The translations under genes were made by a program, and so were the position numbers. From contig JAGLGN010000020.1 in NCBI GenBank assembly GCA_023144005.1, forward strand, positions 10,941-74,940: a stretch of 64,000 nt of DNA. The letters run 5' to 3'. The stretch's first letter is position 1. Every line of letters begins with the position of its first letter. Below, piece by piece: positions 14,200 through 41,884 of the stretch. This DNA comes from a bacterium. Lineage in GTDB: Bacteria > AUK180. The notes below the pieces were generated by a model. The model saw nothing but the letters and a program-made list of their open reading frames with translations. It made no database searches and had not been told where the DNA came from.

Positions 14200-17100
14200 C
14201 TATTTAACCACACCAATTGGCTCTTTTATTATCTCCACATCACCTGCGGAATTCGTTAATTCCAGTATATAAATGTATATTCCGCTGCCGACATAACCTC
14301 CAAAGTCATTCGTACCGTCCCATCTGGCTGAATTCTTTCCCTCTTCGAAAGATACATCCTTAATAACATTACGCACCAGATCCCCTGTAACATCATATAT
14401 TGAGAGATTTACCGTTCCTTTTTCAGGCAGATCAAATACGAATGAGGTGCCGCTCTCAGGAGTAAACGGGTTTGAAGTAAGATACGCCGTCAGATCAGAC
14501 CCTGATGAGTCGGAATCAAGTCCCAGACAGAAGAGACCAAAATGGTTTACATTGAAAGAGATTTTATTATTGATCAGGTCTCTTTGCTCACCACCGACTC
14601 TAACCCATTCAAAGCCGGTCCAGTGGAATGCAATAAGTTGCGTTTCATCCCATTCATCCACCTGGTCCTGATCCGGATCAAGCTCTGCGTCTGTATAAGC
14701 CAAAGTAATTGTGATCTGTTCGTGGAAAGTCAGGTGATCTGGTGAGAATTCATGAGCAGCGCCCATCAAAATATAATCAGCATTCAATGGCTTATAGAGA
14801 TCCTCTTTGGAAACTGACACGATACAGAGATTCTGCTTATCGATTAGCGCATCTTCAGGAATTACAGCACCGGATCCGTCTGGAGATGAAACCGCCCCGC
14901 CATCCGCATTTACCACGGCGCATCCCTGAGGTACAATATAAGTAAGAGTAAATGTTTCTGAGATAGTATTGTCCAGCACATCAATTGCCGTAACCGTAAT
15001 ATCGTTGTTGCCTTCGATCAAGCTAACAATGTGGCTGAATGAATTATCATCATTAAGGATTCCGATCGGACTGTTATTAACATGATCTCCGTTTTCATTC
15101 CGCACTTCAATAATGATATTCTCAACGCCGTTGGGATTCGGAAGATCGGACACGGTGCCTGAAATTATTACTTCATTTACATATACTTCTCCATCAAGAG
15201 GCCCTGCGATCGGCGCGGGACTGACCACAACGGCGATCCCTGGGGAAGTATTGTCTATCAAAAGGCCTGTAACCGTATCCTCGGAAATGAACACTCCCAT
15301 TTCATCATAGGCCTGAACACGGATCATGAAGCCTGTTGAGTCCGCTAAACCATCTGCTGTCGTATCCCAGTCCTGTTCCCAACCGTCGGCACCATTGATA
15401 TCGCTTGTTACGCCGATAACACCAACCAGATCATACCAGGTAATACCGTCAGGTGAAATAGAGAAATCCACTCTCGATGTATCATCCGGGGCAATTGCTT
15501 CGATCTTAATAATGTCATTCATGGAATAATCCGATAACGGTTGAATAATTGTTGTAGGTTCGGGTGTATTATCAAGCTCTACACTTGTATTTGCGCTTGA
15601 AATATTTCCCGCTGAATCCTCCGCAGCAACCTCAAGCGAATATGAGCCGTCAGGTATTGTATTAGCCGCATTGATGGTATATGTGATGGTATATGTCGTA
15701 TCGGTATTATCCAATACCACCTCATCACCCGCATTATACTCACTGTCAATCGTACTGAAATCGGCAGTCACGGCCAGACCTGCTGCGTCCAGATCAGCGG
15801 TGATCGTGATAATATCACCGTCAGCATATGCACTTTGATCAGCACCGACCGAAGTAAATATCGGAGCTGTATTATCTAAAGTTATGCCGAAGTTAGAATT
15901 CACAGGGCCGTTTCCAATCTCATCCAGCGCGCTGATCACAATAATTTTCGCGCCGTCTACATTTGCATTTCCTTTAGAGATCGTATATTCTATTGTGTAA
16001 GTCGTATCGCCGTTGTCGGTTACTGTTTCCGAACCAGATACATAATTTGAGTCCACATTAATAAAGTTGGCGGTGATCAGATACCCGATACCGTCCCAAT
16101 CCGTAACCAATGTGATGGTCTCTTCATTTCTGTAGATCGTATCACTATCCGCTTGAAGAGTGGAAGTATGGGCGGGCGCGGCATTGTCCAATTCAATTCC
16201 TGCTTCAGGATTGAAGATATTCCCGACGCCATCTGTAACTACTGCAGTTAACGTCTTGAGGCCATCAGCAATCGTATTTGCTGGAGAAATAATATAATTC
16301 GCCGTGTAAATACTGTCATTGGCCGTTATATCGGGAGCAACGCCATTATCAAGAAGACTCAGATCTCCGGCTGCTGTATCGTCAAGCAGCAGGAGCTGAG
16401 CAAGAGGCATGACTACCGATAGTCCATTCTCGTACCCATAATATTTGAATTGAACCGTATCGGAATCCTTAAGTTTTGAAGGTGATGCAATTAATTCGCC
16501 AAGGGCATTTGTGTTGTCCAACCCGATACTGGTGGCTAAATTGGAAGAATTGCCTGCTGTGTCCTCTGCACCTATCAAAATTGAATATGAGCCGTCAGGT
16601 ATTGTATTGGCCGCATTGATAGTATACGTGATGGTATATGTCGTATCGGCATTATCCAATACCGCCTCATCACTTGTATTATATTCACTGTCGATCGTAC
16701 TGAAATCGGCAGTCACGGCAAGACCTGCTTCGTCCAGATCCACTATGATCGTGATGAGGTCACCATCAGCATATACGCTCTGATCTGCATCAACCGATGT
16801 AAACACAGGCGCAGTATTATCGACTATAATTGCATTATTCTCAATAGATGGTATTGGTGTGTTATCGCTCTCATCGGTAACTGTCACTCTGATCTCATAT
16901 TGAAGTTCAGCGGCAGAACCCGCGATCGAGATAATATCTGTTCGGGATACAGCGGCGCCGCCGGTAAGTCCGCTGGAGATCGTCTTTTTACCTATCTCAG
17001 TTGCGCCATCGTAGATCTCGATCAGAATAACTCCAGGATTTAATTCCGTATATGTGTAGTTTACAGAAACAGTAGAACCCGCTTTTACCGTGATCGGTGC

Positions 17101-25385: not shown

Positions 25386-25507
25386 TTAATTGTCAATTTC
25401 TCTATAATCACTGCGAAGCGTCATTCTTCATTGTATTTTCCCACTTTACACTTCACACTTTCTTTTACACTTGTCCCTTGTACACTTGTGCCTTGTGCCT
25501 TGTGTTC
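25386..25507. repeat. Intergenic word-repeat cluster (TTAATTGTCAATTTC; CACTGCGAAGCGTC; TGTATTTTCCCACTTTACACTTCACAC; CACTTGTCCCTTGTACACTTGTGCCTTGTGCCTTGTG)
   Basis: A 40-nt core (TGTATTTTCCCACTTTACACTTCACAC) is shared with 26295-26340. Both lie in upstream regions of minus-strand genes. Confidence 0.7.
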
Positions 25508-26196
25508 TACTTTGCTTTCTCTACAATAGTACTATAGTATTCCAAGCCCCATACATAAGAGTATTCAATGATCTGATTAATGATCTTCTGTGCTTCGCCG
25601 TCCAATTCCTTGCTGAATTTCTCATTCGGTTTAGGGTTTGCATCACTGATCACGACCTGCAAGTAATATGTTTCCATCGATTGCCCCCGTTCATCAAGCG
25701 CTAAACTCGCCGAGCCTTTTCTGAGTCCTTGGAACGGCAAATAGCCTTCAGCCTTAACACCTACGGATATGACTATATTTGTCTTGTCGTCTTTTTTGAA
25801 ATAATACGGCCCAAGAGAGCGTGTATTGCGGATCTTATATCCGTTCTTGCATGCCCATAAATAAAAGCTGCGCTCAATTATCGTAGCTAAATGTTCAACA
25901 TGATCTAGTTTCTTTGCTTTTATTTCGGCAATTTCGATCTTTGCTTCGGCTACTATGGAAGAAAGATTCCATTTCTTTGTTTGATACTTAATTACCAGCG
26001 CCTCGGCTTCCTGCTTGGCTGTACTGTCATGTATGCAGGGGTCTTCAATAAGCGGTACCTTTCCGCCATGCCTAAGCTCGATGTATTCAACATCAGCTTC
26101 CGGTTTGACATTCTCCGCATTCAGATAAACCAAAGTGCTTACAAGTAGTAAGAGCACACTTAATTTCAACGCTGCAAGTAATACGCTTTTCTTCAT
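25507..26196 (-). CDS. Hypothetical secreted protein
   Basis: Signal peptide MKKSVLLAALKLSVLLLLVS. No recognisable domain. Confidence 0.4.
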   Translation of the reverse strand: MKKSVLLAALKLSVLLLLVSTLVYLNAENVKPEADVEYIELRHGGKVPLIEDPCIHDSTAKQEAEALVIKYQTKKWNLSSIVAEAKIEIAEIKAKKLDHVEHLATIIERSFYLWACKNGYKIRNTRSLGPYYFKKDDKTNIVISVGVKAEGYLPFQGLRKGSASLALDERGQSMETYYLQVVISDANPKPNEKFSKELDGEAQKIINQIIEYSYVWGLEYYSTIVEKAK

Positions 26197-26360: not shown

Positions 26361-29300
26361 CTACTTGAGTATAACACACTTACCCTGGATCTGCTCGCCT
26401 GCTTCGTCGGTAATAATGTATATATATACCCCTGAAACGACCTTTTTTCCTCTGCGTGTCCTAAGGTCCCAGGTGTGATCGATCAATTCCGGCTGCATTT
26501 TAATTACAAATTCTCCTGAAATACTGTATATCGCAATACTTGAATTCTCAGTGAGATTGGCAAATGTGATATGTTCAATACCCATATTGCTGCTCCACGG
26601 AACGGGATAAACCACGACATCGCCAAGGCCTTGAGCATAATTGTTCACCGCATCAAAATCCTGTACCTGGCTTATCGTCAGGTCAATGAACTGAGCCGTC
26701 TCCGGAGTATATTTATAAAGCCCTACTTCAGGAGTAACCGTATATGTCGCGCCTGCATCAAGGTCCGTAAACAAGTAATATCCTGAAATATCAGTATAAA
26801 CTTCCGTTGTGGAAGCACCCGTAAGAACAACCTTGATATCCGCCAAAGGAGTTATCCCTGACATAATATTTCCGCTTATCGACCATGAATTCAATGTTCC
26901 GGTGAAGTCCACATCAGAAACATTCGCACTCAAAACAGTACAATTGGTATTTGCGGGGCTGAATTCATAATGCGTATGCGAAGGCGTGACCGTATAATCT
27001 TTGCCCGCATCAAGACCGGCAAAGGAATAATTACCGCTGCCGTCAGTCGTCGTTGATGCTGTCGCATAACCGCTCAGATCCACGGTAGCACCGCTTATCG
27101 GATTTGTGCCGTCGGTGATGTTCCCTGAGATATCCCATGTATTCAGAGTTCCCGTAAAATCAGAGCTCGAGATATCCGAGCTGATATTATTATACGAATT
27201 GCTGGGAGCCGCAAAGGTGTAATGCGTCATTGACGGTGTAACCGCAAAGTCCTCACCCGCATTCAAACCGGCAAAGGAATAGTTCCCACTGCCGTCTGTC
27301 GTAGTTGTAGCAGAGGCATAGCCGCTCAGATCGACCGTAACACCGCTTATCGGGTTCGCGCCATCTGTTATCGTGCCTGAAATGGTCCATGTATTCAATA
27401 TGGCAGTGAAATCAGTTGAGGTTTCATCCGCGCTCAAATCTGTATGCTCTGTACTTGTAGGAGCAAAGGAATAATGCGTGAGTGATGGAGTAACGGTATA
27501 ATCTCCGCCAGCGTCAAGGCCGGCAAAGGAATAATTGCCGCTGCCGTCGGTAACAGCAAAGGTAGTCGCTGAGCCGGTGAGATCCACGGTGACACCAGAA
27601 AGCGGGGTAGCCCCATTAGTAATGGTGCCCGAGATATCCCAGGTTTTCAATGTACCGGTAAAATCATTTCCGGTATCATTCGCGCTGAGATCCAGGATCG
27701 AAATATTCACGGGAGCAAATATATAATGCGTATGAGATGGTGTCATGGTATAATCACCACCTGCGTCAAGATCGGCAAAGGAATAATTACCGCTGCCGTC
27801 AGTAACAGTCGTGGCGGTAGCCGAGCCAGAAAGGTCGACTGTAACGCCGCTTATCGGGTTAGTGCCGTCGGTGATCGTCCCAGAAATGTCCCATGTATCG
27901 ATCGTCCCTGTGAAATCGGTATTGTTGCGATCGCCTCCCAAATTAAAATGGGTGGTCCCTGAAGGTACGAACATGTAGTGTGTGTATGACGGTGTAACCG
28001 TATATGTCGCTCCCGCGTCAAGCCCGGCAAAGGAATAATTACCGCTGCCGTCGGTCGTAGTTGATGCTGACACATAACCGCTCAGATCGACCGTAACTCC
28101 GCTTAACGGATCAGTGCCGTCTGTGATCGTGCCTGATACATCCCATGTATTAAGAGTTCCAGTGAAATCGGTCGCGGTTTCATCCGCGCTAAGATCGGTA
28201 TATGTGGTACTTATAGGAGCGAATGTATAATGCGTGAGTGACGGCGTGACCGTATAATCACCGCCCGCATCAAGCCCGGCAAAGGAATAATTACCGCTGC
28301 CGTCAGTTGTCGTTGTAGCAGTTGCCGAACCCGAAAGATCGACAGTAACTCCGCTTAACGGATTAGCGCCGTCCGTGATCGTTCCCGAGATATCCCATGT
28401 ATTAAGGGTTCCTGTAAAATCAACTGATGTCTGATCGCTGTCCAATGAAGCGATATCCGTAAATGACGGTGAGAACGAATAATGTGTAAATGATGGGGTG
28501 ACAGTATAGCTTTCACCATGAGGGACATCCGCGAACGAATAATTTCCGCTGCCATCAGTAACGGTGGAAGCCGAACTGTATCCGCTCAGATCAACCGTAA
28601 CTCCAGCCATCGGAACTGCACCATCGGTTATCGTGCCCGAGATGGTGTGCGGAAGAGATTTTGTGATTACATCAAGCTCATCCGAAGCATCCCTTGAAAG
28701 AGGGATGCAATTCTTGGCTACGACCAAGTAAAAATATCCTGTCGCGGGTGTCAAGCCAGAGTCAGCAAATGTCAAAGCATTGGTATCCGAAGCGAGCAGA
28801 GTCGCAGTAATAGTATCCACCGGCGTCGTGCCGCTTCTGTAAAGATCGTATATAACCTCTTCTATCGTCTGCTGGGCATCTGTTGCCGCATCCCAGACAA
28901 TAGTTATCGCATTGTAAGTAACAACAGTCGAATCTATATTAGAAATACCTGAAACAGCCCAGTCTGGTGCGGTTGTATCCGCAGGATCACATGCAGGCAA
29001 AGTTGCAATCGCTAGCTCGTCCGATGCCTCCCTTTCAAGCGGCACACAATTGCGTACGACAACTTTATAATAATATGTCGTCTCCATTGTCAGTCCCGTA
29101 TCCAGATATGTATTTGCTTCAGTATCTTCAACTATCGGTGTCAATGAACTTGTGTCAGAAATTGTAACGGTATCTCTGTACAGATCATAGGTAAGAGGCA
29201 ATGTGTCGTTCTCAAGATCAGAGGCCGCATCCCATTCCAAGTCAATAGATGTGTGGGATATTGCCGTTGAACAGATATTCGAGACCCCTGAAACTGTCCA

Positions 29301-32300
29301 ATCCGCAGCGGTAACATCGGCGGGATCGCAGATGACAGGTAGCGGAGCGGTATTTATATCGGCTACTGAACGGGGGTTCAATCTATAATAATCGTATCCG
29401 TATAATAACACACCCGTTAATTGACTTATCGTCTGGCCTGCCGTCATCTCGGCATGGTAAAAAGCATCATCACAGCCGAGTATCTTGGTTCCAGCGGAAT
29501 CCCTGAACTCCCAATAGCCGTGATTTCCGGTGGTCGAACTCACCACAACATCATAGAATGTCACAAGGACACCTTCATACGCTTCAGGTACGAGATCGCA
29601 ATTGGCGCCTTCCGGATCATTGTCTCCGATCTCTTCCACAGTTGTAGTGGTCGCATTTGTGGAATTGCCGGAAGAATTCACGGCATAAGCTGTAATCGTG
29701 TTGATCTGAGAAAGCCCGAAATACTCGTCAACCGTACCGGTAATGGTAATATTATCCCCTATAACAGGGAAATTTGTGAAGTCATAGACATAAATACCGT
29801 TCCAAGCGCCATCGGCATCGGTAATAATATATTTATTCGTACCGACCGCAGTAACATTCCCCGTCAAGGTAACTTCTTCCGCTTCTCTTGGAGAATCGTA
29901 GCATTCCGATCCGACGCTTCCTGTAAATTGTATACTGTAGATAGTATCAACCGGAACGGCCGGCGTAATAACGGTCAGCTCATCAGAGGAATCCCTTGAA
30001 AGCGGAACACAATTGGAAACCGTGACAAGATAATAATATGTATTGGAAGCGGAAACCGTATTGTCAGCGTATGTAGTAAGAACCGTATTATTGGCAAGTA
30101 ATGTTGCGGTTGTCGTATTGAGCGGCGTTGAATTACTTCTATAAAGATCGTATGTCAATGCCTGCGTATTGTTATCACTGTCGGATGCGGCATCCCATGA
30201 AAGCGCAACGGATGTCTGCGAAACAGAAGTGCTATCCAGATTGGAGATCCCTGAGACAGTCCAATCAGGCGCTGTAGTATCCGAATCATCACAAAGAGAA
30301 GCCCCGGAAGTGTCAATATCGGCTGCTGAGCGGGGGTTCAATCTATAATAATCGTATCCGTATAATAACACACCCGTTAATTGACTTATCGTCTGGCCTG
30401 CCGTCATCTCGGCATGGTAAAAAGCATCATCACAGCCGAGTATCTTGGTTCCAGCGGAATCCCTGAACTCCCAATAGCCGTGATTTCCGGTGGTCGAACT
30501 CACCACAACATCATAGAATGTCACAAGGACACCTTCATACGCTTCAGGTACGAGATCACAATTGGCGCCTTCCGGATCATTGTCTCCGATCTCTTCCACC
30601 GTTGTTGTAGTGGCGTTTACAGGATTACCGGAAGAATTCAAGGTATATGAAGTGATCGTAGTAAGTTCAGTCAAACCGAAATACTCATCTACCGTGCCGG
30701 TAATAGTAATATTATCCCCTACCGTAGGAGTGTAATTGGAGTCATAAACATATAAGCCGTTCCATGCACCATCCGCATCGGAGATAACATATTTTCCGGT
30801 TGCGATTGCCGTAACAACACCTGTAAGGGTGACCTCTTCCGCATCCCTGGGAGAGTCATAACATCCGGATCCAAGAGTTCCTGTAAATTGCACACTGTAG
30901 ATAGTATCCCCTGCCGGGCCGGCGGGAGTTGTAGTTTTAACCTCATCGGAAGCTTCCTTTTCAAGAGGCACACAGTTCTTTGCCGCTATTTTGTAATAGT
31001 ATGTATTTTCAGGAACCACTGTGCTATCCGCATATGCTGTACCCGTAAGATTCGATGCGACAACGGTAGCTGTAGATGTATCGACAGGCGTAGAACCGCT
31101 TCGGTAAAGGTCATAGGTCACGGCTTCTGTCGTATTTTCAGTATCCGCGGCAACTCCCCAACTGAGAGTTATCGAGCTTGATGCGGTATTTGTAACGGCG
31201 ATATCCGATACTCCGCTCACCGTCCAATCTGGAGGTGTCGTGTCACTGTCATCACAGGCAGCAAGCGTCTCCCTCTGAATAAATTCATCCCAATTGCTTG
31301 TAGTAGCGATCAGCGTCGAGTCATAATACGCGTCATAATCCAATTCATCTAAGGGATAATAGATACCGGTCCCGTAACAATCATTTCCCGTCTCGGCAAA
31401 ATTATTTGTGACCGCATTAGTAATGGCCGTTCTAACTGCTGCAGAGCTGTCCTTCAAAGATTGCGGTACCGCCTGGGCCTCTAATTTCAAACAGAAATCG
31501 TAAAGATCTATCTGATCGTAATAAGGGTAAGAAGAGTCAAGTTCAAAGGTATTGGCTCTTGCGTTTTGTATCTGCGTGCCATATGAGCTCAAATTCTGTC
31601 TGAGCTTGATCGCGAAAGAATTGATCGCGGGTGTCAGGCCTGAAGATACCTGCGCGAGGTCCAGGGCAGATTGTGTCCATCCGTTTGATCCACTTTCTCC
31701 CGCAGCATATGCGTCAACTACCGAATTTGCCAATGCCACAGGTGTAATTGTCCCTCCACTGCTCACAATATCATTCAGAAACGGTGTATAAGACCATCCG
31801 TCAAGCCACTCCGACATCTCTGATGCCACCATATAATCAAAATACGGAGCTGATTCCGCATTATTTTCCCACATCTGGTCAAGACATACATCATAACCCA
31901 CTATGTCGAGTTTTGAGCCGTAATAAGTATATATCTCTTTAAAAGCCGTACCAAGTTCACCGAGCATACCCGGAGTGCCTGAAGTGAAATATAAGTAATC
32001 GCCACTTGTATCATCCGAGGAAGCGCCCTTGTAAGAGGCAAGATTATCCTCGACTTTCCGCCAGCCGTCACCATGATCCCAGATCACCAGCATATAATGC
32101 TCGGCGGGGTAATTATCCCTCACCCATTTTCCGAAGGAGACCAATGTATCGCCATCTCCCATATTTGCCTCTCCGATATCCGAAACAGCGTTTGCAATTG
32201 TCGGAGTCATCCCGGAGGTAATATAATATCTCTTAGTTGAGGTCCAGTCGTCGTATAATGAAGAATAACCACCGATCCTGTCCATCTGGACAACGATATT

Positions 32301-34532
32301 CAGATTAGCATCAGAACCGACAGCGGACATTTCCAGAAAATCATCAATGCCGTCTGCTTCAAGATTATTGTCACAGTTAAGAAACACCGCGACGGTCCAT
32401 TTCGGCAATACGCTTTCGGGGGTATTTATCTCTACTTCATCGGAGGCAGTCATAGAAAGCGGAACACAATTGGATGCCACTACTTTATAATAGTAAGTGG
32501 TGCCGCCGGAAAGAGAGCTGTCCGTATAGGAAGTTGAAGTGATCCCTGCGGTCATCAATATCGCCGTTGTAGTATCCACAGGTGATGTCTCACTTCTATA
32601 AAGGGCATAAGTTATGGCCTCTGTATCATTTTCCGCATCCGTTGCGGAATCCCAGGCCAATGCCGCGGATGATGATGTGATCAAGGTTGAATCGATGTTT
32701 GAAACACCTGAGACCGACCAATCCGGAGCAGTTGTATCTCCATTATCACAAGCATTCACTGAAGGGCTGGTATCTATATCCGAAGCGGAGCGGGGATTCA
32801 ATCTGTAATGATCATAAGTGTAAAGGAGAACTCCCGTGATCTGTGAAATAGTCTGGCCGTTCGCGAGATCGGCAAGGTAGAAACTATCGTCACAGCTCAA
32901 TTCAAGGGTTCCCGACTGATCCTTGATCTTCCAATATCCGTAAGTACTTAAAGGCGAGCTGACAACAACATCATAAAGCGTCACAAGAACACCCTCATAC
33001 TCCTCCGAGTCGGCATTACAGTCCGCTCCCCATTGGGAAGAGCCGCCGATACTTTCACATGTAACGGTAGCAGGAGTTACAGAATTTCCCGAAGAATTCA
33101 AGGTATATGAAGTAACAGTCGCGATCTCGGTAAGGCCGAAATATTCATCCACTATACCGGTTATTGTAATATTGTCTCCAACGGATGGGGAATAATTGCT
33201 GTCATAAATATAAACCCCGTTCCATGCGCCGTCAGCATCGGCGAAAACATATTTTCCAGTGCCTATTGCGGTAACGATGCCTGTCAGGGTAACCTCTTGT
33301 GTTTCTCTGGGGGAATCGTAGCATTCACTTCCCACAGTCGCCGTGTTCTGAACACTATATATCGTATCTGTGGTCTCCGCGGGAGTTGTTATCTCGATCT
33401 CGTCTGAAGCGGTTCTGGTCACAGGTACGCAATTTGATGCCACGACCTTGTAGTAATATGTTGTTTCTGCTGAAACAGTATTATCCGTAGCACTGGTGGA
33501 TGTGGTTCCAGAAGCTACCAGAGTTGCCGTAGCGGTATCAACAGGAGATGTTCCACTTCTATACAGGTAATATGAAATTGCAAATGTATCATTCTCAACT
33601 TCGGAGGACGCGTCCCACATAAGCGTGACCTGATCCGCCAGAAGTGAGGATGTCTCAATGTTTGACACTCCTGAGACCGCCCAGTCCGGAGGTGTCGTAT
33701 CGGAATCGTCGCACCCGGCGCATGTACCGCCCCATACATCACATACCCATTCGGGGTGATCTATATACGGATTTCTGTTGCCCTGGATCGCGTAAACCGC
33801 GTCGTTTCTGTCTATTTCCTTCTGGCTGACCGGATCTGCGTTATGCCATTCCAGGAACATATCATACGCCCAGGCCTGAAATCCGGGATATGATGTACCG
33901 TTGAAGCTGGTATCGGTCGTGTCCCAGGAATCGATCCGGTCTTCGTACCTTGTCACAGTATAGAAATAGGTTCTTGCAAAATCGCCCTTATATTCATCAA
34001 TGGGTTCAAATATCGCTCCAGAATAACCCGCGTATGAACAACTTCCGACCTTCGAACCATTCGTCGATGTCCAGGTCGGGCTTGAGGTTTCACCGAAGGG
34101 GTAATTTGATCTTCTCCCGTTGACATATCCATCGGTCGGATATACCATAAAAAGATCAGTGTACATGGGAGAAGAGCTCCCGAACCAGCTTGAAGGGATA
34201 GAATGCTCTCTATTATAGCAATCCGCTTCACTGTTATAGGTTCCGCATTGATTCGAACCATGTGTATAAGTGTATGCGGGAGTGCCGCCGGGAACAGTGG
34301 AGTACATATCCCATACGGTATTCGCGCCCGTATTATCAGTGGTCTGATAGGCGATATAAAGGGAATCATAGCTCTGACTGGAATGTCCGTCAATAATATA
34401 GTGAAGATTCGTCTTTAATGTAGCTCCGGTACCCGTAGCTGTATCATAATAGCCTGCGGGAATAGCCGCAAACAGAAGCTGTGAAAACGCGAAAAATGCA
34501 AGAAAGATCAACTTGGTAACTTTCATAGACAC
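26361..34532 (-). CDS. Giant T9SS-secreted multidomain protein (2723 aa): N-terminal Endonuclease I (EndA/Vvn family) nuclease, Fn3 and beta-sandwich repeats, clostripain-like (peptidase C11) domain, ~10 CarboxypepD_reg-like repeats, and a Por-secretion C-terminal domain
   Basis: Endonuclease I motifs: NREHSIPSSW (cf. EWEHVVPAW), VNGRRSNYPF (cf. VNGDRSNFNF), KGDFARTYFYT (cf. RGSIARTYLYM) and GNRNPYIDHPEW (cf. GNHNPFV). C11 motifs: NCDNNLEADG, VIWDHGDGW (catalytic His) and VGYDVCLDQM (catalytic Cys, near nt 31885). Repeated ISGTITDG...GVTVDLSG...TDGSGNYSF units. C-terminal ...VSGVYIYIITDEAGEQIQGKCVILK. The likely true start is the ATG at 34526 (MKVTKLIFLAFFAFSQLLFA signal peptide); the ORF-track start at 34532 is GTG. 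Confidence 0.8.
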   Translation of the reverse strand: MSMKVTKLIFLAFFAFSQLLFAAIPAGYYDTATGTGATLKTNLHYIIDGHSSQSYDSLYIAYQTTDNTGANTVWDMYSTVPGGTPAYTYTHGSNQCGTYNSEADCYNREHSIPSSWFGSSSPMYTDLFMVYPTDGYVNGRRSNYPFGETSSPTWTSTNGSKVGSCSYAGYSGAIFEPIDEYKGDFARTYFYTVTRYEDRIDSWDTTDTSFNGTSYPGFQAWAYDMFLEWHNADPVSQKEIDRNDAVYAIQGNRNPYIDHPEWVCDVWGGTCAGCDDSDTTPPDWAVSGVSNIETSSLLADQVTLMWDASSEVENDTFAISYYLYRSGTSPVDTATATLVASGTTSTSATDNTVSAETTYYYKVVASNCVPVTRTASDEIEITTPAETTDTIYSVQNTATVGSECYDSPRETQEVTLTGIVTAIGTGKYVFADADGAWNGVYIYDSNYSPSVGDNITITGIVDEYFGLTEIATVTSYTLNSSGNSVTPATVTCESIGGSSQWGADCNADSEEYEGVLVTLYDVVVSSPLSTYGYWKIKDQSGTLELSCDDSFYLADLANGQTISQITGVLLYTYDHYRLNPRSASDIDTSPSVNACDNGDTTAPDWSVSGVSNIDSTLITSSSAALAWDSATDAENDTEAITYALYRSETSPVDTTTAILMTAGITSTSYTDSSLSGGTTYYYKVVASNCVPLSMTASDEVEINTPESVLPKWTVAVFLNCDNNLEADGIDDFLEMSAVGSDANLNIVVQMDRIGGYSSLYDDWTSTKRYYITSGMTPTIANAVSDIGEANMGDGDTLVSFGKWVRDNYPAEHYMLVIWDHGDGWRKVEDNLASYKGASSDDTSGDYLYFTSGTPGMLGELGTAFKEIYTYYGSKLDIVGYDVCLDQMWENNAESAPYFDYMVASEMSEWLDGWSYTPFLNDIVSSGGTITPVALANSVVDAYAAGESGSNGWTQSALDLAQVSSGLTPAINSFAIKLRQNLSSYGTQIQNARANTFELDSSYPYYDQIDLYDFCLKLEAQAVPQSLKDSSAAVRTAITNAVTNNFAETGNDCYGTGIYYPLDELDYDAYYDSTLIATTSNWDEFIQRETLAACDDSDTTPPDWTVSGVSDIAVTNTASSSITLSWGVAADTENTTEAVTYDLYRSGSTPVDTSTATVVASNLTGTAYADSTVVPENTYYYKIAAKNCVPLEKEASDEVKTTTPAGPAGDTIYSVQFTGTLGSGCYDSPRDAEEVTLTGVVTAIATGKYVISDADGAWNGLYVYDSNYTPTVGDNITITGTVDEYFGLTELTTITSYTLNSSGNPVNATTTTVEEIGDNDPEGANCDLVPEAYEGVLVTFYDVVVSSTTGNHGYWEFRDSAGTKILGCDDAFYHAEMTAGQTISQLTGVLLYGYDYYRLNPRSAADIDTSGASLCDDSDTTAPDWTVSGISNLDSTSVSQTSVALSWDAASDSDNNTQALTYDLYRSNSTPLNTTTATLLANNTVLTTYADNTVSASNTYYYLVTVSNCVPLSRDSSDELTVITPAVPVDTIYSIQFTGSVGSECYDSPREAEEVTLTGNVTAVGTNKYIITDADGAWNGIYVYDFTNFPVIGDNITITGTVDEYFGLSQINTITAYAVNSSGNSTNATTTTVEEIGDNDPEGANCDLVPEAYEGVLVTFYDVVVSSTTGNHGYWEFRDSAGTKILGCDDAFYHAEMTAGQTISQLTGVLLYGYDYYRLNPRSVADINTAPLPVICDPADVTAADWTVSGVSNICSTAISHTSIDLEWDAASDLENDTLPLTYDLYRDTVTISDTSSLTPIVEDTEANTYLDTGLTMETTYYYKVVVRNCVPLEREASDELAIATLPACDPADTTAPDWAVSGISNIDSTVVTYNAITIVWDAATDAQQTIEEVIYDLYRSGTTPVDTITATLLASDTNALTFADSGLTPATGYFYLVVAKNCIPLSRDASDELDVITKSLPHTISGTITDGAVPMAGVTVDLSGYSSASTVTDGSGNYSFADVPHGESYTVTPSFTHYSFSPSFTDIASLDSDQTSVDFTGTLNTWDISGTITDGANPLSGVTVDLSGSATATTTTDGSGNYSFAGLDAGGDYTVTPSLTHYTFAPISTTYTDLSADETATDFTGTLNTWDVSGTITDGTDPLSGVTVDLSGYVSASTTTDGSGNYSFAGLDAGATYTVTPSYTHYMFVPSGTTHFNLGGDRNNTDFTGTIDTWDISGTITDGTNPISGVTVDLSGSATATTVTDGSGNYSFADLDAGGDYTMTPSHTHYIFAPVNISILDLSANDTGNDFTGTLKTWDISGTITNGATPLSGVTVDLTGSATTFAVTDGSGNYSFAGLDAGGDYTVTPSLTHYSFAPTSTEHTDLSADETSTDFTAILNTWTISGTITDGANPISGVTVDLSGYASATTTTDGSGNYSFAGLNAGEDFAVTPSMTHYTFAAPSNSYNNISSDISSSDFTGTLNTWDISGNITDGTNPISGATVDLSGYATASTTTDGSGNYSFAGLDAGKDYTVTPSHTHYEFSPANTNCTVLSANVSDVDFTGTLNSWSISGNIMSGITPLADIKVVLTGASTTEVYTDISGYYLFTDLDAGATYTVTPEVGLYKYTPETAQFIDLTISQVQDFDAVNNYAQGLGDVVVYPVPWSSNMGIEHITFANLTENSSIAIYSISGEFVIKMQPELIDHTWDLRTRRGKKVVSGVYIYIITDEAGEQIQGKCVILK
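29364..30610. repeat. Internal tandem duplication inside the 2723-aa gene: ~290-bp blocks at 29364-29650 and 30324-30610 are >99% identical (960-bp period)
   Basis: Antisense shadow ORFs 29421..29999 and 30381..30650 share identical N-termini. The encoded segments (ATTTTVEEIGDNDPEGANCDLVPEAYEGVLVTFYDVVVSSTTGNHGYWEFRDSAGTKILGCDD...) are repeated almost exactly. A third, ~75% identical copy lies near 32770-33060. Confidence 0.75.
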
Positions 34533-36865: not shown

Positions 36866-38227
36866 TTATTTAAGAAGCTCCTTTATTAGGCCTTTGACTT
36901 CCGGACTGGCGTTCTTTTTCAATTTGATAGTACCGGAGGTTTCTATTCGTGATGTCTCGACATCCACTATCTTTGCCCGTATATAATACATATTGTTTAT
37001 TAATGATATCTTGCCGATGACCATCTTGTTCACGGCAAGTATTTTACCTACTTCTACCGCGCATTCGGCTGAAACACAACCGGTTTTCTGAAACTCGACT
37101 TCATCCATTATCACTTTTAACGCGCTTCTTTCTATTACGGTGTATTTGCCGGTATCAAGGAGTTCGTCGCTGATCATATCCTCTATTACATCGCTGTAAC
37201 TTTCCGGAACCTCAGGTGCCTCAAATTCCATTATGGCGATCGAGATCATCTTTTTCGGTACTTCCTCTGCAAAAGATCTCTTTTTCTCCTTTTTGGGTTT
37301 TGATACATATTTTCTTTCAGGCATTGAAAAATCAAGGCCTGCTGAAATAAAGTGAAACCCTGTGAGATCTCCCATAGCAAAGGTATAGTCCACTTGATAG
37401 TTAGCATACATTACTCCAATACCAGCGCTTAAGCCCGAAGCCAGCTCATTTCTGTCAAGCTGATAGGCAGCACGCAGGGAAATGATATTATTAATGATGT
37501 ATTCCGCTCCAAGGCCGAATTTCATCGGTGAATCCGCCGGACCCAGGAAATATGTGCCAGCGGCGTTTATCTTCAGCGTACCGTCCAGAAAGTCCTTGCC
37601 CACACTGAGTCCAAGCCGTCCCGGCGTCATTGAGTCATCCCCTGAAGAGATAGCAATGATATCATTCAATGATAATCCCACCTTGAGAATGTCAAGTGCA
37701 TACTCCATTCCCATGGAGAGGTAGGCATAGGAGAACTTCTCCTCCGCAATATCCCCTGTTTCGGGTAATGTCTGGGACAATAATGAAAAACTGATCCCGG
37801 CCGTAAGCGCCGGCATGATCTTTCTTACATATCCCGCTCTTATTATGCTATCTCCGGTAAGAGAAGCGTTTTCATCGAGGATCTCTCCAAATTCATCTAC
37901 CGCGATATAATCAGGATTCGCGATCATCTGATAAGAGACAAAAGCGAAATTGTCCTCTCCAATGGTCATTGCAAGTGAAGTCTGATTATGAGCCCTGCCG
38001 CTGAATACACCGGGGAAATATGAAAATCTCAACGAGAACTGATCTTTGATCCTCGCGGCAGAGGCACAATTAAAGCTCAGATAAGCCAAGGGCCTGTCTG
38101 AAGTTATCCCGCCCGGAAGCGCGAGCGTCAAGCCGTCAACGGGAGTGAACATTTCGGAATACCCGAGATCACCTGCGGAAGCGAATACGCATAGAATAAC
38201 GGCACATGATAATATCATCCGCTTCAT
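36866..38227 (-). CDS. Outer-membrane protein: N-terminal predicted beta-barrel plus a C-terminal ~120-aa periplasmic alpha/beta module (CsgG/LpoB/TolB-N-like)
   Basis: Signal peptide. A K-rich linker (KPKKEKKRSF) follows the barrel. The C-terminal module has ISIAIMEFEA...GCVSAECAVEVGKILAVNKMVIGKI. Lies downstream of the LVIVD T9SS cargo gene. Confidence 0.4.
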   Translation of the reverse strand: MKRMILSCAVILCVFASAGDLGYSEMFTPVDGLTLALPGGITSDRPLAYLSFNCASAARIKDQFSLRFSYFPGVFSGRAHNQTSLAMTIGEDNFAFVSYQMIANPDYIAVDEFGEILDENASLTGDSIIRAGYVRKIMPALTAGISFSLLSQTLPETGDIAEEKFSYAYLSMGMEYALDILKVGLSLNDIIAISSGDDSMTPGRLGLSVGKDFLDGTLKINAAGTYFLGPADSPMKFGLGAEYIINNIISLRAAYQLDRNELASGLSAGIGVMYANYQVDYTFAMGDLTGFHFISAGLDFSMPERKYVSKPKKEKKRSFAEEVPKKMISIAIMEFEAPEVPESYSDVIEDMISDELLDTGKYTVIERSALKVIMDEVEFQKTGCVSAECAVEVGKILAVNKMVIGKISLINNMYYIRAKIVDVETSRIETSGTIKLKKNASPEVKGLIKELLK

Positions 38228-38230
38228 CTT

Positions 38231-41200
38231 TTACTCCTCGCCTCTTCTGAAATACACGGTCAGCACTATTGCTTCAGAACCGTCCACTGGACGGACCACA
38301 AGGAAATACACACCGGAGAGCAATTTATTACCTGACTCGTCTTCGGCTATATTCAACAGCATAGGCCCGTTTTCGGCAGATTCCCAGCTCATTAACTCTG
38401 AACCTCCCGCATCATATAGAGAAAGACCGTCGTCAGCCGCAAGATCGGTTACGCGGATAGTTCCCGTTGTGGGATTGGGGATCACGATGCATTGGTCATA
38501 TGTTTTAAAAGCGGTAAAATCACAATCGATAATTCCCGCGGAAAGATCAGTATATGTTCTGAATGCCGGGGTGTAGCTATAACCGGGAGCTGCGACCGAA
38601 ACCGTATATGTCTCTCCGGCATCAAGACCGGTGAATGTGAAAACACCCAGAATATTTGTCGAGACATTCATTTCCGCGCCACCTGTGACGGTGACAATTA
38701 GATCCGAAATGACGGAATCCGACAATTCATCGGTAACTTTTCCCTGTATGTCCCACTTATCGACCTGACCGGTGAAATCCGCATTTGATACGGATGAGGA
38801 AAGCTCGGTATAATTATGTGAGGCAGGGGTGAAAGTATAATGCGTGAGTGAAATAGTAACACTGTATGTCTCACCGCCGGGAAGATCGTCAAATCGATAG
38901 TACCCGGTGGCAGAAGTTAACAAGGATCCTGTAGAAAATCCCGACAGATCCACGCTTGCAGAAGAAATGGGATCACCCACACCATCCTCAACAATACCGG
39001 ATATGGTCCACTTGTCGTAAGCAGCCGTGAAATCGTTGGCTTCTGAATTATTGCTGAGATCAGGGACCGTTCTGGATGCCGGGACAAATGAATAATTTGT
39101 AAGTGAAGGAGTTATCGTATATGGGGACCCCGCAGGAAGATCACTGACAATGTAATATCCTGAGGCGTTCGTAGTCGTCGGCGTATCTGTAGTACCGTCT
39201 GAAACCGTTACAGTTACACCGGAAAGAGGCGAACTGTCTTCGGTGATGGTGCCGTCGAGGTACCATGTATTGATCACTGCGACATAGTCATCATCCTGGT
39301 TCGCGCTCGTATCCGAAAATGTCCTGGAAACCGGATCAAAAGTATAATGTGTCTTTGACAGTGTAACGGTATAAGTGGCATGGACAGGAAGGCCGGTGAA
39401 TGAAAAATTCCCGGAAGCATTTGTTACAGTGGTTCCGGTCGAATCACCCGAAAGGTCTGCAGTCACCCCTTCCAGAGGTGTGCTCATCGAATATCCGTCC
39501 CAAACGGTACCAGCGATGTTCATCGTCAACAGAGTCGCGTCAAATGGAGGGAAGATTAAATGATTTGTAATAAGATCGGAAATTTCCACTTCCGTTGGCG
39601 AAAACGAATACTGTAGATGAGAAGGTGTAAAGGTATAAGTGCCGCCCGCAGACAGATTTTCAAAAATGAAATATCCTGCTCCATCGGTTATTCTGCTTCC
39701 AGTGGAATCTCCTGTAAGATTAACGGCTATACCGGAAAATGGCGATCCATCAAGCTCTACATTACCTTCTACTTGGTAAAGGTGAAGCGTTCCTGTAAAA
39801 TCCTGATTCGTCATATCCCCGGAAAGATCGGGAAGTGTCCGTGAGGAGGGCGCAAAACCGTAATAAAGAGGATCAGGAGTAATAGTAAATGTTCCGCCCT
39901 GAAGAAGATTTGCGAACTCATAATAACCCGAAGCGTCAGTAATAGTGTTTCCCGTGGAATCTCCGCTTAGGGAAACCGAAACACCCTCAAGAGCAACTAC
40001 CATTGAATCCGCTATCGAGCCCGAGATCGTTGCGACGGGATCGGAAAGGGTACAGTCAAGGATGAAATACCCTCCCAGTTTGTCGCCTACAAAAATATAT
40101 TCCGAGTCGGCGTAGATGCAGTACGCCGAACCTGTAGTTTCATAATAACCCACTTCGGAAGGAGATGTGGGGTCAGAAACGTCCAGGATCCTGAGGCCGG
40201 CGGTATTGGCCGCTACATACAAATATCCGTTCTGATACCACACATCCACCGCTTCACCAAGTGTATTGTGGTAGGTTTCCAGAGACGGCGCAGAAGGGGT
40301 GGTGATATCTATTATCGCGACACCCGAATTTCCATCGGCGACAAAGGCATGATTTCCGTAGACTGCAACCCCGTTGGAAACACCGGTTGTATTATAATCT
40401 CCGACCTCAGTAGGTGAATCAGGATTTGAAACATTGAGGACCTTGAGGCCGTCAGCGCCGGAAGCCACATAGGCATAATCATTTACAACATACACATCAT
40501 ATACATACGATGGAACGGTATAAGAGCTCCGTTCCGTAGGAGAATCAGGAGTGGACACATCTATGATCCTCAAGCCGCCGGCCATATCCGCATCATAAAT
40601 ATCTGTTCCGTAGAGAAATATTTTAGTTGCCTCGTCCGGTGTATCGCACACTGCTAGGGCGGTCATTGAAGACGGATTACTGATATTCCAGACCCGGACC
40701 CCACTAATGTAGTCAGCTATATAGAGGTAATTTCCGGAGACGATAACATCCCTGGCATACCATCCGGTCGCCTTACTTTCAAGTACCTCTGGGTTATATG
40801 GGTCGGTAATGTCTACTGAAGTGATCCCCATGGAATCATTGGCAACATACAGATAATTGCCCTGACGCCAGATACCGTAAACATTTCCGGGAACATCAAG
40901 AACCGCTTTTTCAGAAACATTAGAGATATTTGTTACATCAAGAACTGAGAGTCCCCCTCTGCCGGCGGCAACATAGAGGTCGTTTCCGTTTACCGCCACG
41001 CCCCACGAGTAGCCATTCGCGTAAAATTGGTCCTCCTCCTGCATAAGGAACATCGCCATGGAATCATCCCATGTTTGTGAATAGGTCCTTATTCCGCCTG
41101 TATAATCGGCAACGAATGCCTCACTGCTGGAATTGTAAACGACATCTTTTGAGCTACTGGTAGTAAAGAAGTCCTCAACCATTGGGAAGCTGGGCACACT

Positions 41201-41884
41201 CACTATCTTACTCAGTTGGGAACCCGAACAAACCAATACAGGCTCAATACTGGCCGGATCATGTGTAATGCTCACTGCACTGCCTGGTACGGGAACACTA
41301 CCGGAATGAGTAATAGCGTAGGGATCTGAAATATCAAGACAATACATTCCGTCGGGACCGCCTGCCACATACAGCGTATTGGAAGCGAGCGATAGACTGA
41401 CGCCGTATCCTTCCTTAGCGGTATACTCGTCGGTCAGTGTAGGCGTATCGGAAGCGGTCACATCAAAGACCTTGACCCCATTGGCGGCAAAGCCGACATA
41501 GGCATAATTTCCGCTTGCCCAGACTCTCTGCGAGCTGGAAGCATAATATTCTCCCACATATGAGGGATTAAGCCGATCTGTAATATCAAGGACTACCAGA
41601 CCGTCATACAGATCAGTATAATAAAGACGGTTGCCGTCAACATAAACGTCATTTACTCTTTGAGTAGTGTCGTAGTAATTGACAAGCGCAGGATCCGTCG
41701 GAATTGATATATCATAGATACCTATGAATCCGTATGCCGCGGTATAAAGATATGTATCTGAATACGCTACTTTTTTGGGATCGCCTTCGAGCACAAAAGA
41801 TATCAGATCTACATTGGACGAGGCACCAGATACATAAGAAACACTCAGTAACATCAATATAACAAAAATAAATAATCGCTTCAT
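38231..41884 (-). CDS. T9SS-secreted LVIVD-repeat beta-propeller protein (1217 aa) with CarboxypepD_reg-like repeats and a Por-secretion CTD
   Basis: Signal peptide. Repeated ~45-aa units of the LVIVD type (...YDGLVVLDITDRLNPSYVGEY..., GLRILDVSDPTSPSEVGYY..., GVAIIDITTPSAPS...). Then six units of the form ISGSIADS...GVSVSLSGDSTGNTITDASGYYEF. C-terminal ...LLSGVYFLVVRPVDGSEAIVLTVYF. Confidence 0.7.
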   Translation of the reverse strand: MKRLFIFVILMLLSVSYVSGASSNVDLISFVLEGDPKKVAYSDTYLYTAAYGFIGIYDISIPTDPALVNYYDTTQRVNDVYVDGNRLYYTDLYDGLVVLDITDRLNPSYVGEYYASSSQRVWASGNYAYVGFAANGVKVFDVTASDTPTLTDEYTAKEGYGVSLSLASNTLYVAGGPDGMYCLDISDPYAITHSGSVPVPGSAVSITHDPASIEPVLVCSGSQLSKIVSVPSFPMVEDFFTTSSSKDVVYNSSSEAFVADYTGGIRTYSQTWDDSMAMFLMQEEDQFYANGYSWGVAVNGNDLYVAAGRGGLSVLDVTNISNVSEKAVLDVPGNVYGIWRQGNYLYVANDSMGITSVDITDPYNPEVLESKATGWYARDVIVSGNYLYIADYISGVRVWNISNPSSMTALAVCDTPDEATKIFLYGTDIYDADMAGGLRIIDVSTPDSPTERSSYTVPSYVYDVYVVNDYAYVASGADGLKVLNVSNPDSPTEVGDYNTTGVSNGVAVYGNHAFVADGNSGVAIIDITTPSAPSLETYHNTLGEAVDVWYQNGYLYVAANTAGLRILDVSDPTSPSEVGYYETTGSAYCIYADSEYIFVGDKLGGYFILDCTLSDPVATISGSIADSMVVALEGVSVSLSGDSTGNTITDASGYYEFANLLQGGTFTITPDPLYYGFAPSSRTLPDLSGDMTNQDFTGTLHLYQVEGNVELDGSPFSGIAVNLTGDSTGSRITDGAGYFIFENLSAGGTYTFTPSHLQYSFSPTEVEISDLITNHLIFPPFDATLLTMNIAGTVWDGYSMSTPLEGVTADLSGDSTGTTVTNASGNFSFTGLPVHATYTVTLSKTHYTFDPVSRTFSDTSANQDDDYVAVINTWYLDGTITEDSSPLSGVTVTVSDGTTDTPTTTNASGYYIVSDLPAGSPYTITPSLTNYSFVPASRTVPDLSNNSEANDFTAAYDKWTISGIVEDGVGDPISSASVDLSGFSTGSLLTSATGYYRFDDLPGGETYSVTISLTHYTFTPASHNYTELSSSVSNADFTGQVDKWDIQGKVTDELSDSVISDLIVTVTGGAEMNVSTNILGVFTFTGLDAGETYTVSVAAPGYSYTPAFRTYTDLSAGIIDCDFTAFKTYDQCIVIPNPTTGTIRVTDLAADDGLSLYDAGGSELMSWESAENGPMLLNIAEDESGNKLLSGVYFLVVRPVDGSEAIVLTVYFRRGEE

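Follow-up and report, generated by a model that had tools for sequence, protein, structure and literature searches.

A single polypeptide carrying both a nuclease and a protease domain is encoded in the 64,000-nucleotide stretch of bacterial DNA analysed here (positions 10,941 to 74,940 of contig JAGLGN010000020.1, assembly GCA_023144005.1), which is referred to below as the window. Its gene lies on the minus strand, and the product joins an N-terminal Endonuclease I domain of the EndA/Vvn type to a clostripain-like peptidase C11 domain. The catalytic residues of both domains are intact, both domains are maintained by selection, and the pairing was found nowhere outside the protein's own lineage. 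On balance, we lean towards a role for the fusion protein in degrading extracellular DNA and protein for nutrition.

The uninterrupted open reading frame (ORF) spans 26361..34532 on the minus strand and, read mechanically, starts with a GTG at 34532. This GTG falls within a GAGGTG motif resembling a Shine-Dalgarno sequence, and because it sits inside such a ribosome-binding-like element the in-frame ATG at 34526, two codons further 3', is most likely the true start. A model-made reading of the letters alone, hereafter the first-pass annotation, had described a protein of 2723 amino acids (aa); the ORF is real, and the probable start gives 2721 aa instead. Residue numbers of the fusion protein are counted from the ATG at 34526 throughout. 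The product from this ATG is identical to GenBank MCK5599206.1 (2721 aa), encoded on a 1.44-Mb contig of a metagenome-assembled genome (MAG) and annotated only as 'endonuclease [bacterium]', a public label that overlooks the second catalytic domain. Judged from its sequence, the protein is probably Sec-exported, about 290 kDa in size and either secreted or held at the surface. A scan for promoters and terminators around the gene gave counts no higher than in shuffled sequence.

Two intact catalytic domains

Both enzyme families proposed by the first-pass annotation were recovered at full length in profile hidden Markov model searches. For the nuclease, Pfam Endonuclease_1 (PF04231) matches with E=8e-86 and 288 bits (cutoff 25) over profile positions 1-235 of 235, and all four conserved blocks that had been read from the sequence were located, namely NREHSIPSSW at residue 105, VNGRRSNYPF at 135, KGDFARTYFYT at 180 and GNRNPYID at 249. 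Searches with phmmer and hmmsearch against the Vvn/EndA structures of the PDB (2pu3, 1oup, 2g7e) aligned only the C-terminal half of the domain, because the gammaproteobacterial enzymes have an 18-residue insertion. With hhalign, a profile of eight long-type homologues could be aligned to E. coli EndA (taken from NC_000913.3) at 97.6% probability, pairing REH with WEH, YVNGRRSN with EVNGDRGN, ARTYFY with ARTYFY and GNRNPY with GNHNPY, and weak local alignments to Vibrio EndA agree with this pairing of catalytic residues. E107, H108 and N136 are intact in the fusion protein and invariant in 8 of 8 homologues, and none of these catalytic residues is substituted in the alignment to E. coli EndA. 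In Vvn their counterparts are presumably E79, H80 and N127. The structure of Vvn gives the Glu-His pair and the Asn of the VNG motif the roles of general base and Mg2+ ligands.

For the protease, Pfam Peptidase_C11 matches with E=2.5e-36 and 126 bits (cutoff 25.8) over positions 1-356 of 359, and the motifs VIWDHGDGW (814) and VGYDVCLDQM (876) lie where they had been reported. A phmmer alignment with clostripain (9cip) equates H818 with H176, and D879-V-C881 with the D-A-C triplet of the FDACL motif, which we take to be Asp229/Cys231. Across nine of nine members of the C11 subfamily the H, D, C and K833 are invariant, and R823 is nearly so; the claimed His/Cys dyad (H818/C881) is intact in both alignments, together with the S1 Asp879. 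The AlphaFold2 (AF2) model of the domain has a predicted template modelling score (pTM) of 0.85, with the predicted local distance difference test (pLDDT) falling below 50 exactly at residues 819-854. Foldseek comparison of the model places clostripain 9cip first (TM 0.72, E=4e-19), followed by thetapain, iotapain and the P. distasonis C11 zymogen (E down to 1e-12), and the structure prediction proposed for the protease region in the first-pass annotation accordingly returns a C11 fold. Identity to the solved C11 structures is about 14-22%, and the score against the clostripain equivalog TIGR02806 is 59.9 bits (cutoff 550), so that the domain reads as a member of the family and not as a clostripain orthologue.

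In solved C11 enzymes, the P1 Lys or Arg of the substrate is bound by an Asp that precedes the Cys by two residues (bioRxiv 10.1101/522870). From the position of Asp879, two residues ahead of Cys881, cleavage after Lys/Arg is predicted for the C11 domain of the fusion protein. C11 enzymes also self-activate at a Lys or Arg located 13-15 residues past the His, and the light and heavy chains of the characterised enzymes remain associated after this cleavage (bioRxiv 10.1101/522870). In the clostripain alignment, R823 falls on R181 and K833 on R190, the residues at either end of the linker that clostripain excises. The alignment, the conservation within the subfamily and the predicted disorder of the loop together suggest that the domain probably self-activates by cutting its own loop at K833.

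A genuine and maintained fusion

Clustering at 90% identity groups three full-length sequences of 2721 aa, each from a different assembly (P0121, P0122 and P0123), with one fragment. In the sister MAG RS_12_30 (GCA_023133295.1), two contigs that were assembled independently both carry the gene within the same neighbourhood. The sister orthologue, at 93% DNA identity and 95.6% protein identity, shows zero indels and colinear junction regions. The Nei-Gojobori ratio of nonsynonymous to synonymous substitution rates (dN/dS) against the sister gene is 0.09 overall, 0.057 for Endonuclease I, 0.048 for C11 and 0.07-0.18 for the OB modules described below. Both catalytic domains are under strong purifying selection. 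Repeats of 300 nt at 97% identity and eight repeats of 252 nt are risky for short-read assembly and could in principle have generated a chimera, but the same length and domain order in three assemblies, the absence of indels and colinear junctions relative to the sister MAG, a dN/dS near 0.05 in both catalytic domains and the intact catalytic residues make it very unlikely that the gene is an assembly chimera or that one of its catalytic domains is a decaying, inactive relic.

Rarity and relatives

The strongest test of rarity was an index-free HMMER search with aa 1-1098 against 1.84 billion representative proteins. When the top matches were re-scanned module by module, Endonuclease I and C11 occurred on one chain only within the protein's own cluster; a long-type Endonuclease I alone scores about 340 bits, and a chain combining it with even a distant C11 domain would rank near the top. 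A word-indexed search with aa 1-1100 returned thousands of Endonuclease I proteins, and among the best 120 a C11 domain was present only in P0001, an N-terminally truncated fragment of 1739 aa (59% identity) from which the nuclease end is missing. The best 120 matches of a search with the C11 domain were stand-alone or differently decorated C11 proteins (at most 48% identity), none with Endonuclease I. Because this last list omitted both the protein's own cluster and P0001, the case for rarity rests mainly on the index-free search. In addition, pattern scans of 185,579 species-representative genomes and of metagenomes from the Joint Genome Institute (JGI) yielded 162 loci with related C11 genes, among which only the orthologue has Endonuclease I in the same ORF as C11.

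The pairing, which had been singled out as unusual from the letters alone, is therefore without a second case among the top matches of the large search or among the related C11 loci, and no description of the Endonuclease I–C11 combination was found in the searchable literature. As far as these searches show, the fusion is restricted to a single species-level lineage, that of an uncultured bacterium. Every component family, the secretion tail and the giant modular layout are already known, and it is the C11 and OB insertions that distinguish the protein.

The giant Endonuclease I proteins associated with type IX secretion systems (T9SS) in Bacteroidota and allied uncultured bacteria (P0304, P0373, P0307, P0003 and P0004) have much in common with the fusion protein, including the signal peptide, an N-terminal long-type Endonuclease I domain (50-64% identical to the one studied here), Fn3 spacers, a long accessory region and a type A sorting tail. 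However, they carry no protease, and their accessory domains are LTD, DUF5689, PKD and others instead of C11 and three tandem-OB modules. Proteins with the order Endonuclease I–LTD–Fn3–C-terminal domain (CTD) and lengths of 2.4-3.1 thousand aa exist. An EndoI of Riemerella anatipestifer is a Mg2+-dependent DNase/RNase exported by the T9SS (PMC12398890). Proteins with tandem Endonuclease I, with tandem C11 and with Endonuclease I plus an EEP domain also occur.

Similarly, the protease domain shares with clostripain, PmC11, thetapain, iotapain and fragipain the His/Cys dyad, the overall fold and an Asp located two positions ahead of the Cys, as well as basic residues in the loop after the His at the sites of linker excision in clostripain. 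The known C11 peptidases are enzymes of about 400-500 aa or lipoproteins, whereas here the domain is embedded mid-way in a chain of 2721 aa. Outside the orthologues, the nearest relatives (at most 59% identity) are N-terminal C11 domains of CTD proteins of 750-1800 aa from sediment MAGs. The same Fn3–OB–Fn3–C11 core order is found in P0001, P0283 and L004, in all three of which the upstream side ends at a contig edge; P0001 and P0283 are 56-58% identical over the matched regions, and the C11 domain of L004, in the sister genome, is 74% identical. P0001 differs in continuing with LTD domains and in having no CarboxypepD_reg stalk. L004 is a paralogue with a Fn3–OB–C11–…–Fn3–OB–Fn3 layout on a 4.7-kb contig that is cut at both ends.

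Two other groups of nucleases invite comparison. ExeM, NucH and Xds are surface-associated extracellular nucleases that, like the fusion protein, are multidomain and include OB folds, but they have an EEP catalytic domain and no protease in place of Endonuclease I and C11. Their sorting signal, GlyGly-CTERM/rhombosortase, also differs from that of the fusion protein. P0108, from a JGI metagenome, does combine a protease with a long-type Endonuclease I on one secreted chain of 1171 aa (Peptidase_M6 78.6 bits, Endonuclease_1 290 bits). It begins with an M6 (InhA-like) metalloprotease bearing an HEFSH motif, followed by Endonuclease I and Calx-beta; the protease class is thus another one, the domain order is reversed and OB modules are absent, and no T9SS-tail match was found in its precomputed Pfam list or at E <= 1e-4. 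P0108 is clearly an independent fusion event, and the pairing of a protease with Endonuclease I therefore arose at least twice.

The two families can also be neighbours without being fused. In the low-GC metagenome locus L089 (939-7012), genes for an FG-GAP-like protein, a 662-aa C11 protein and a 368-aa Endonuclease I follow one another on the same strand, and each product of this trio has a signal peptide and a T9SS-like tail. Locus L087 likewise has consecutive genes for C11 and Endonuclease I proteins with a CTD. Such adjacency was considered as 'Rosetta stone' support for the fusion and was rejected, as about one independent case in about 158 loci is roughly what chance would give.

Module layout

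The borders of the modules were set by scanning the fusion protein with its own modules. They are given below from the N-terminus, with the evidence for each in brackets.

26361..34526, minus strand: whole gene, 2721 codons plus stop, ATG start at 34526
34467..34526, minus strand: Sec signal peptide, aa 1-20, MKVTKLIFLAFFAFSQLLFA, then cut before AIPAGYY (read from sequence)
33732..34466, minus strand: Endonuclease I domain (EndA/Vvn-type beta-beta-alpha-Me), aa 21-265 (Pfam, hhalign, PDB matches, dN/dS)
34203-34208, minus strand: codons of catalytic E107-H108 (alignment)
34119-34121, minus strand: codon of metal-ligand N136 (alignment)
33372..33731, minus strand: Fn3 module 1, aa 266-385 (HMM and self-module scan)
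32757..33371, minus strand: tandem OB-fold module 1, aa 386-590 (NCBIfam ExeM_NucH_DNase, Pfam BOF and DUF6359, AF2, Foldseek)
32403..32756, minus strand: Fn3 module 2, aa 591-708 (HMM and self-module scan)
31263..32402, minus strand: peptidase C11 domain (clostripain-like, clan CD), aa 709-1088 (Pfam, clostripain alignment, AF2/Foldseek, dN/dS)
32073-32075, minus strand: codon of H818 of C11 (alignment)
31884-31892, minus strand: codons of D879-V-C881 of C11 (alignment)
32028-32060, minus strand: R823-K833, within the putative C11 activation loop, aa 819-854 (alignment and low pLDDT)
30912..31262, minus strand: Fn3 module 3, aa 1089-1205 (self-module scan)
30297..30911, minus strand: tandem OB-fold module 2, aa 1206-1410 (NCBIfam and self-module scan)
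29952..30296, minus strand: Fn3 module 4, aa 1411-1525 (self-module scan)
29337..29951, minus strand: tandem OB-fold module 3, aa 1526-1730 (self-module scan)
28653..29336, minus strand: Fn3 modules 5 and 6, aa 1731-1958 (self-module scan)
26628..28652, minus strand: eight CarboxypepD_reg (transthyretin-like) repeats, aa 1959-2633 (Pfam, self-module scan, DNA period)
26364..26627, minus strand: T9SS type A sorting domain (CTD), aa 2634-2721 (TIGR04183)

The mature N-terminus AIPAGYY fits the Q/A-IPxGYY start of homologous Endonuclease I proteins. Fn3 modules are present between and after the catalytic domains, as had been noted, and number six in total; their Pfam fn3 matches are weaker than those of CarboxypepD_reg. 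The linker motif CDDSDTTPPDW opens Fn3 module 1 and recurs at every Fn3 module. CarboxypepD_reg scores 189 bits in Pfam, and in place of the ten repeats counted in the first-pass annotation there are eight, with a period of 84 aa or 252 nt over residues 1959-2633. These repeats are presumed to act as a stalk or spacer.

Tandem OB modules

The three modules of about 205 aa match the NCBIfam model ExeM_NucH_DNase (NF033681) three times, each over positions 31-125 and with the first half of the module, and there are further matches to Pfam BOF and DUF6359. The protein does not belong to NF033681 itself, given a total of 120 bits against a cutoff of 300 and no EEP catalytic domain. An AF2 model of one module, built with 20 homologues, shows two consecutive small barrels (pLDDT 85, pTM 0.85), and its best Foldseek matches are HIN-200 (two tandem OB folds), YgiW, RPA and CST subunits, with TM values of 0.5-0.6 for the single OB folds. 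What had been described as three beta-sandwich modules of about 220 aa are therefore tandem OB folds of about 205 aa. In Xds, the OB domain is needed for nuclease activity (PMC6746945). The notion that OB modules are a general accessory of Endonuclease I was rejected, because only 2 of about 226 other Endonuclease I homologues carry one.

Several observations concern the module as such. It spans about 200 aa and has no Pfam family of its own, and its homologues are mostly small stand-alone proteins composed of a signal peptide, the OB module and a CTD, from Cloacimonadota, Bacteroidota and related MAGs (P0264-P0280). The Endonuclease I protein P0361 connects it distantly to DUF5689. Within the fusion gene, modules 3 and 2 share 97% DNA identity across 300 nt of their C-terminal halves (29356-29655 vs 30316-30615), whereas their N-terminal halves are only 73% identical, a difference that indicates recent gene conversion inside the gene. 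Near-identical halves of this length are a hazard for short-read assembly.

Secretion signals and amino-acid composition

The C-terminal tail matches the T9SS type A sorting domain TIGR04183 with 24.5 bits for the whole protein and 32.9 bits for the tail alone (cutoff 23), while Pfam Por_Secre_tail (PF18962) stays below its cutoff (18.9 vs 27). The Por-secretion CTD reported earlier thus has the backing of the TIGRFAM/NCBIfam model and not of the Pfam one, and the other best similarities of the tail are to the tails of PorZ and PorU. With this sorting domain and a Sec signal peptide, the latter read from the sequence, the protein has the two features that define a T9SS type A cargo. Two further large proteins of the window, both on the minus strand, end in similar tails: one at 14200-19548 and one at 38231-41884 with LVIVD and CarboxypepD_reg repeats. 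A 453-aa protein encoded at 36866-38227 on the minus strand, 2.3 kb upstream of the fusion gene, has an N-terminal half resembling the PorV/PorQ barrel. No further T9SS component was seen in the 64-kb window and the few loci read, the remaining contig lying outside this search.

The 453-aa protein is of separate interest in that its PorV/PorQ-like barrel is fused to an LpoB/CsgG-like C-terminal domain. Its gene adjoins 38231-41884, the product of which has 1217 aa with LVIVD repeats, CarboxypepD_reg and a T9SS-like tail, and the sister MAG lacks both genes at its locus L001, which is syntenic in other respects.

The mature fusion protein contains only 81 Lys and Arg among 2701 residues (3%). 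The three CTD proteins of the window (14200-19548, 26361-34526 and 38231-41884, all on the minus strand) have 3.1-3.4% Lys plus Arg and a pI of about 4, compared with 7-18% Lys plus Arg in the other ORFs of the window. T9SS-type Endonuclease I and C11 homologues elsewhere, most of them without a fused protease, have medians of 4.8-5.3%. Depletion of Lys and Arg as a specific self-protection was rejected on the grounds that these homologues are similarly depleted; the low content is a property of the secreted class and not specific to the fusion.

Neighbourhood and organism

Upstream of the gene, on the same strand, lies a NicO/DUF1007 metal-transporter pair; downstream, again on the same strand, are an orphan exported protein of 229 aa and a hybrid PAS/GAF histidine kinase. 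These neighbours are syntenic in the sister MAG. The orphan protein is encoded directly downstream of the fusion gene (25507-26196, minus strand), has a signal peptide and is conserved in the sister MAG with 97% identity and in the same gene order. Searches of Pfam, NCBIfam and the PDB gave no match for it, and it does not occur in the other loci fetched (about 160). Speculatively, it could be a partner of the fusion protein, such as an inhibitor, chaperone or anchor.

Rnf complex genes at 1.2-6.5 kb of the window fit an anaerobic lifestyle. The sister genome RS_12_30 (L003-L014) holds at least seven paralogues of the C11 subfamily, with 41-96% identity to the domain in the window, which suggests a proteolytic lifestyle. 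Some near-identical neighbour proteins bear the label Candidatus Calescamantes. The window also encodes two unusually large proteins of regulatory type, one of 3138 aa that consists almost wholly of TPR repeats (52666-62082, plus strand) and one of 1331 aa with adenylate/guanylate cyclase, AAA_16 and TPR domains (7530-11525, minus strand).

Proposed role and alternatives

In anoxic sediments, dead cells leave behind extracellular DNA and protein that make up major pools of nutrients, and most DNA in the environment is associated with protein. The fusion protein could be suited to exploit such material. Its signal peptide would direct it across the inner membrane and its CTD would take it through the outer membrane by a T9SS-type route, after which it would be released or attached to the surface and held out on the stalk of eight transthyretin-like repeats. 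The C11 domain would be made as a zymogen and would cut its own disordered loop after the His at K833, possibly also at R823/K824, where clostripain removes its linker peptide. This cut would leave the nuclease, Fn3, OB, Fn3 and the C11 light chain on an N-terminal piece and the C11 heavy chain, stalk and CTD on a C-terminal one, with the C11 fold keeping the two pieces together. The Endonuclease I domain, expected to be Mg2+-dependent and sequence-nonspecific, would cut extracellular DNA and probably RNA, and the protease would cut after Lys/Arg, as suggested by Asp879. Joint breakdown of DNA and of bound or nearby protein in dead-cell debris could then supply phosphorus, nitrogen and carbon to the host, pictured as an anaerobic sediment bacterium that ferments protein and is equipped with at least seven related C11 paralogues that are secreted. 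Among marine-sediment taxa, the possession of extracellular nucleases is recognised as a mark of DNA foraging (PMC8289736).

We consider this nutritional use of necromass or nucleoprotein somewhat probable, and a number of points weigh against it. The PorV/PorQ-like match of the upstream gene product scores 45.9 bits with NF033709, under the cutoff of 90, and among the genes of the window no nucleotidase, phosphatase, nucleoside transporter or peptide transporter is adjacent to the fusion gene. The Foldseek similarity of the OB module to DNA-binding OB proteins is weak (E~1e-3, TM about 0.4 over the whole module). Furthermore, the modules are strongly acidic, with a net charge of -21 to -23 that is unlike a simple DNA-binding surface; this is only a weak argument against DNA binding, because low Lys/Arg is class-wide. 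As mentioned above, OB modules are also rare in Endonuclease I homologues (2/~226). Finally, the two enzymes may be independent hydrolases that merely share one export and anchoring scaffold.

A more closely integrated form of the nutritional role is a tentative possibility. Here the fusion protein would be a dedicated nucleoprotein machine, in which the Lys/Arg-specific C11 domain strips basic DNA-binding proteins, the OB modules hold the DNA and Endonuclease I cuts the exposed strand. The basic shields removed in this way might be HU, Alba or histone-like proteins or viral core proteins. After the self-cut at K833 the enzyme would consist of two chains joined non-covalently, the protease fold being the sole link between the nuclease head and the cell, and fusions of the P0108 type would be convergent solutions.

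Remodelling of an extracellular matrix is conceivable, if doubtful, as the main function. The enzymes would then trim the organism's own or a neighbour's biofilm, acting on extracellular DNA and matrix proteins to regulate how cells attach, disperse or move over surfaces. Extracellular nucleases such as ExeM, Xds and Dns govern the architecture of biofilms and detachment from them (PMC6746945, PMC6085458), the long stalk and probable surface tether would place both enzymes in the pericellular matrix, and the hybrid PAS/GAF histidine kinase encoded close downstream is syntenic in the sister MAG. However, no matrix-synthesis genes are adjacent and there is no sign of biofilm formation by the organism. 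The same domains would be just as useful for feeding, and one role does not preclude the other. The first-pass annotation had proposed both scavenging of extracellular DNA and protein and biofilm remodelling, and its suggestion is plausible.

The C11 domain could instead be a processing module that cuts the polyprotein in cis or in trans and thereby releases or activates the Endonuclease I head from the anchored stalk, much as the clan CD cysteine protease domains of large toxins release their effectors. Self-cleavage by C11 enzymes (bioRxiv 10.1101/522870) is in keeping with this idea, cleavage at K833, as predicted, would part the nuclease half of the chain from the half that is anchored, and with Lys and Arg at only 3% there are few other sites for self-cutting. 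Nevertheless, the nearest C11 relatives are stand-alone or N-terminal secreted proteases that have no nuclease to free, and the low Lys/Arg content is general to the secreted class (median 4.8-5.3%). Moreover, the cut alone would not free the nuclease head, because the light and heavy chains of C11 enzymes stay associated after cleavage (bioRxiv 10.1101/522870). We therefore regard release of the nuclease as an unlikely purpose of the protease.

Use as a weapon, with DNase and protease at the surface intercepting competing cells, vesicles or virus particles (both capsid and genome) ahead of contact with the cell, is suggested only by the combination of activities and their display on a long stalk and is quite improbable, since Endonuclease I would be unable to reach DNA within intact cells or capsids and the surroundings of the gene contain neither an immunity gene nor a toxin-delivery domain nor a defence island (PADLOC and PHROG were not searched).

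Significance

The fusion protein represents neither a new enzyme class nor a new mechanism, and its novelty lies in the very rare pairing of two ordinary enzyme types. It may be viewed as a natural bifunctional scaffold for degrading biofilms or matrices resembling neutrophil extracellular traps. If the nutritional role is true, it would be a compact example of coordinated necromass degradation by an uncultured lineage, in which a DNase is coupled to a Lys/Arg protease.

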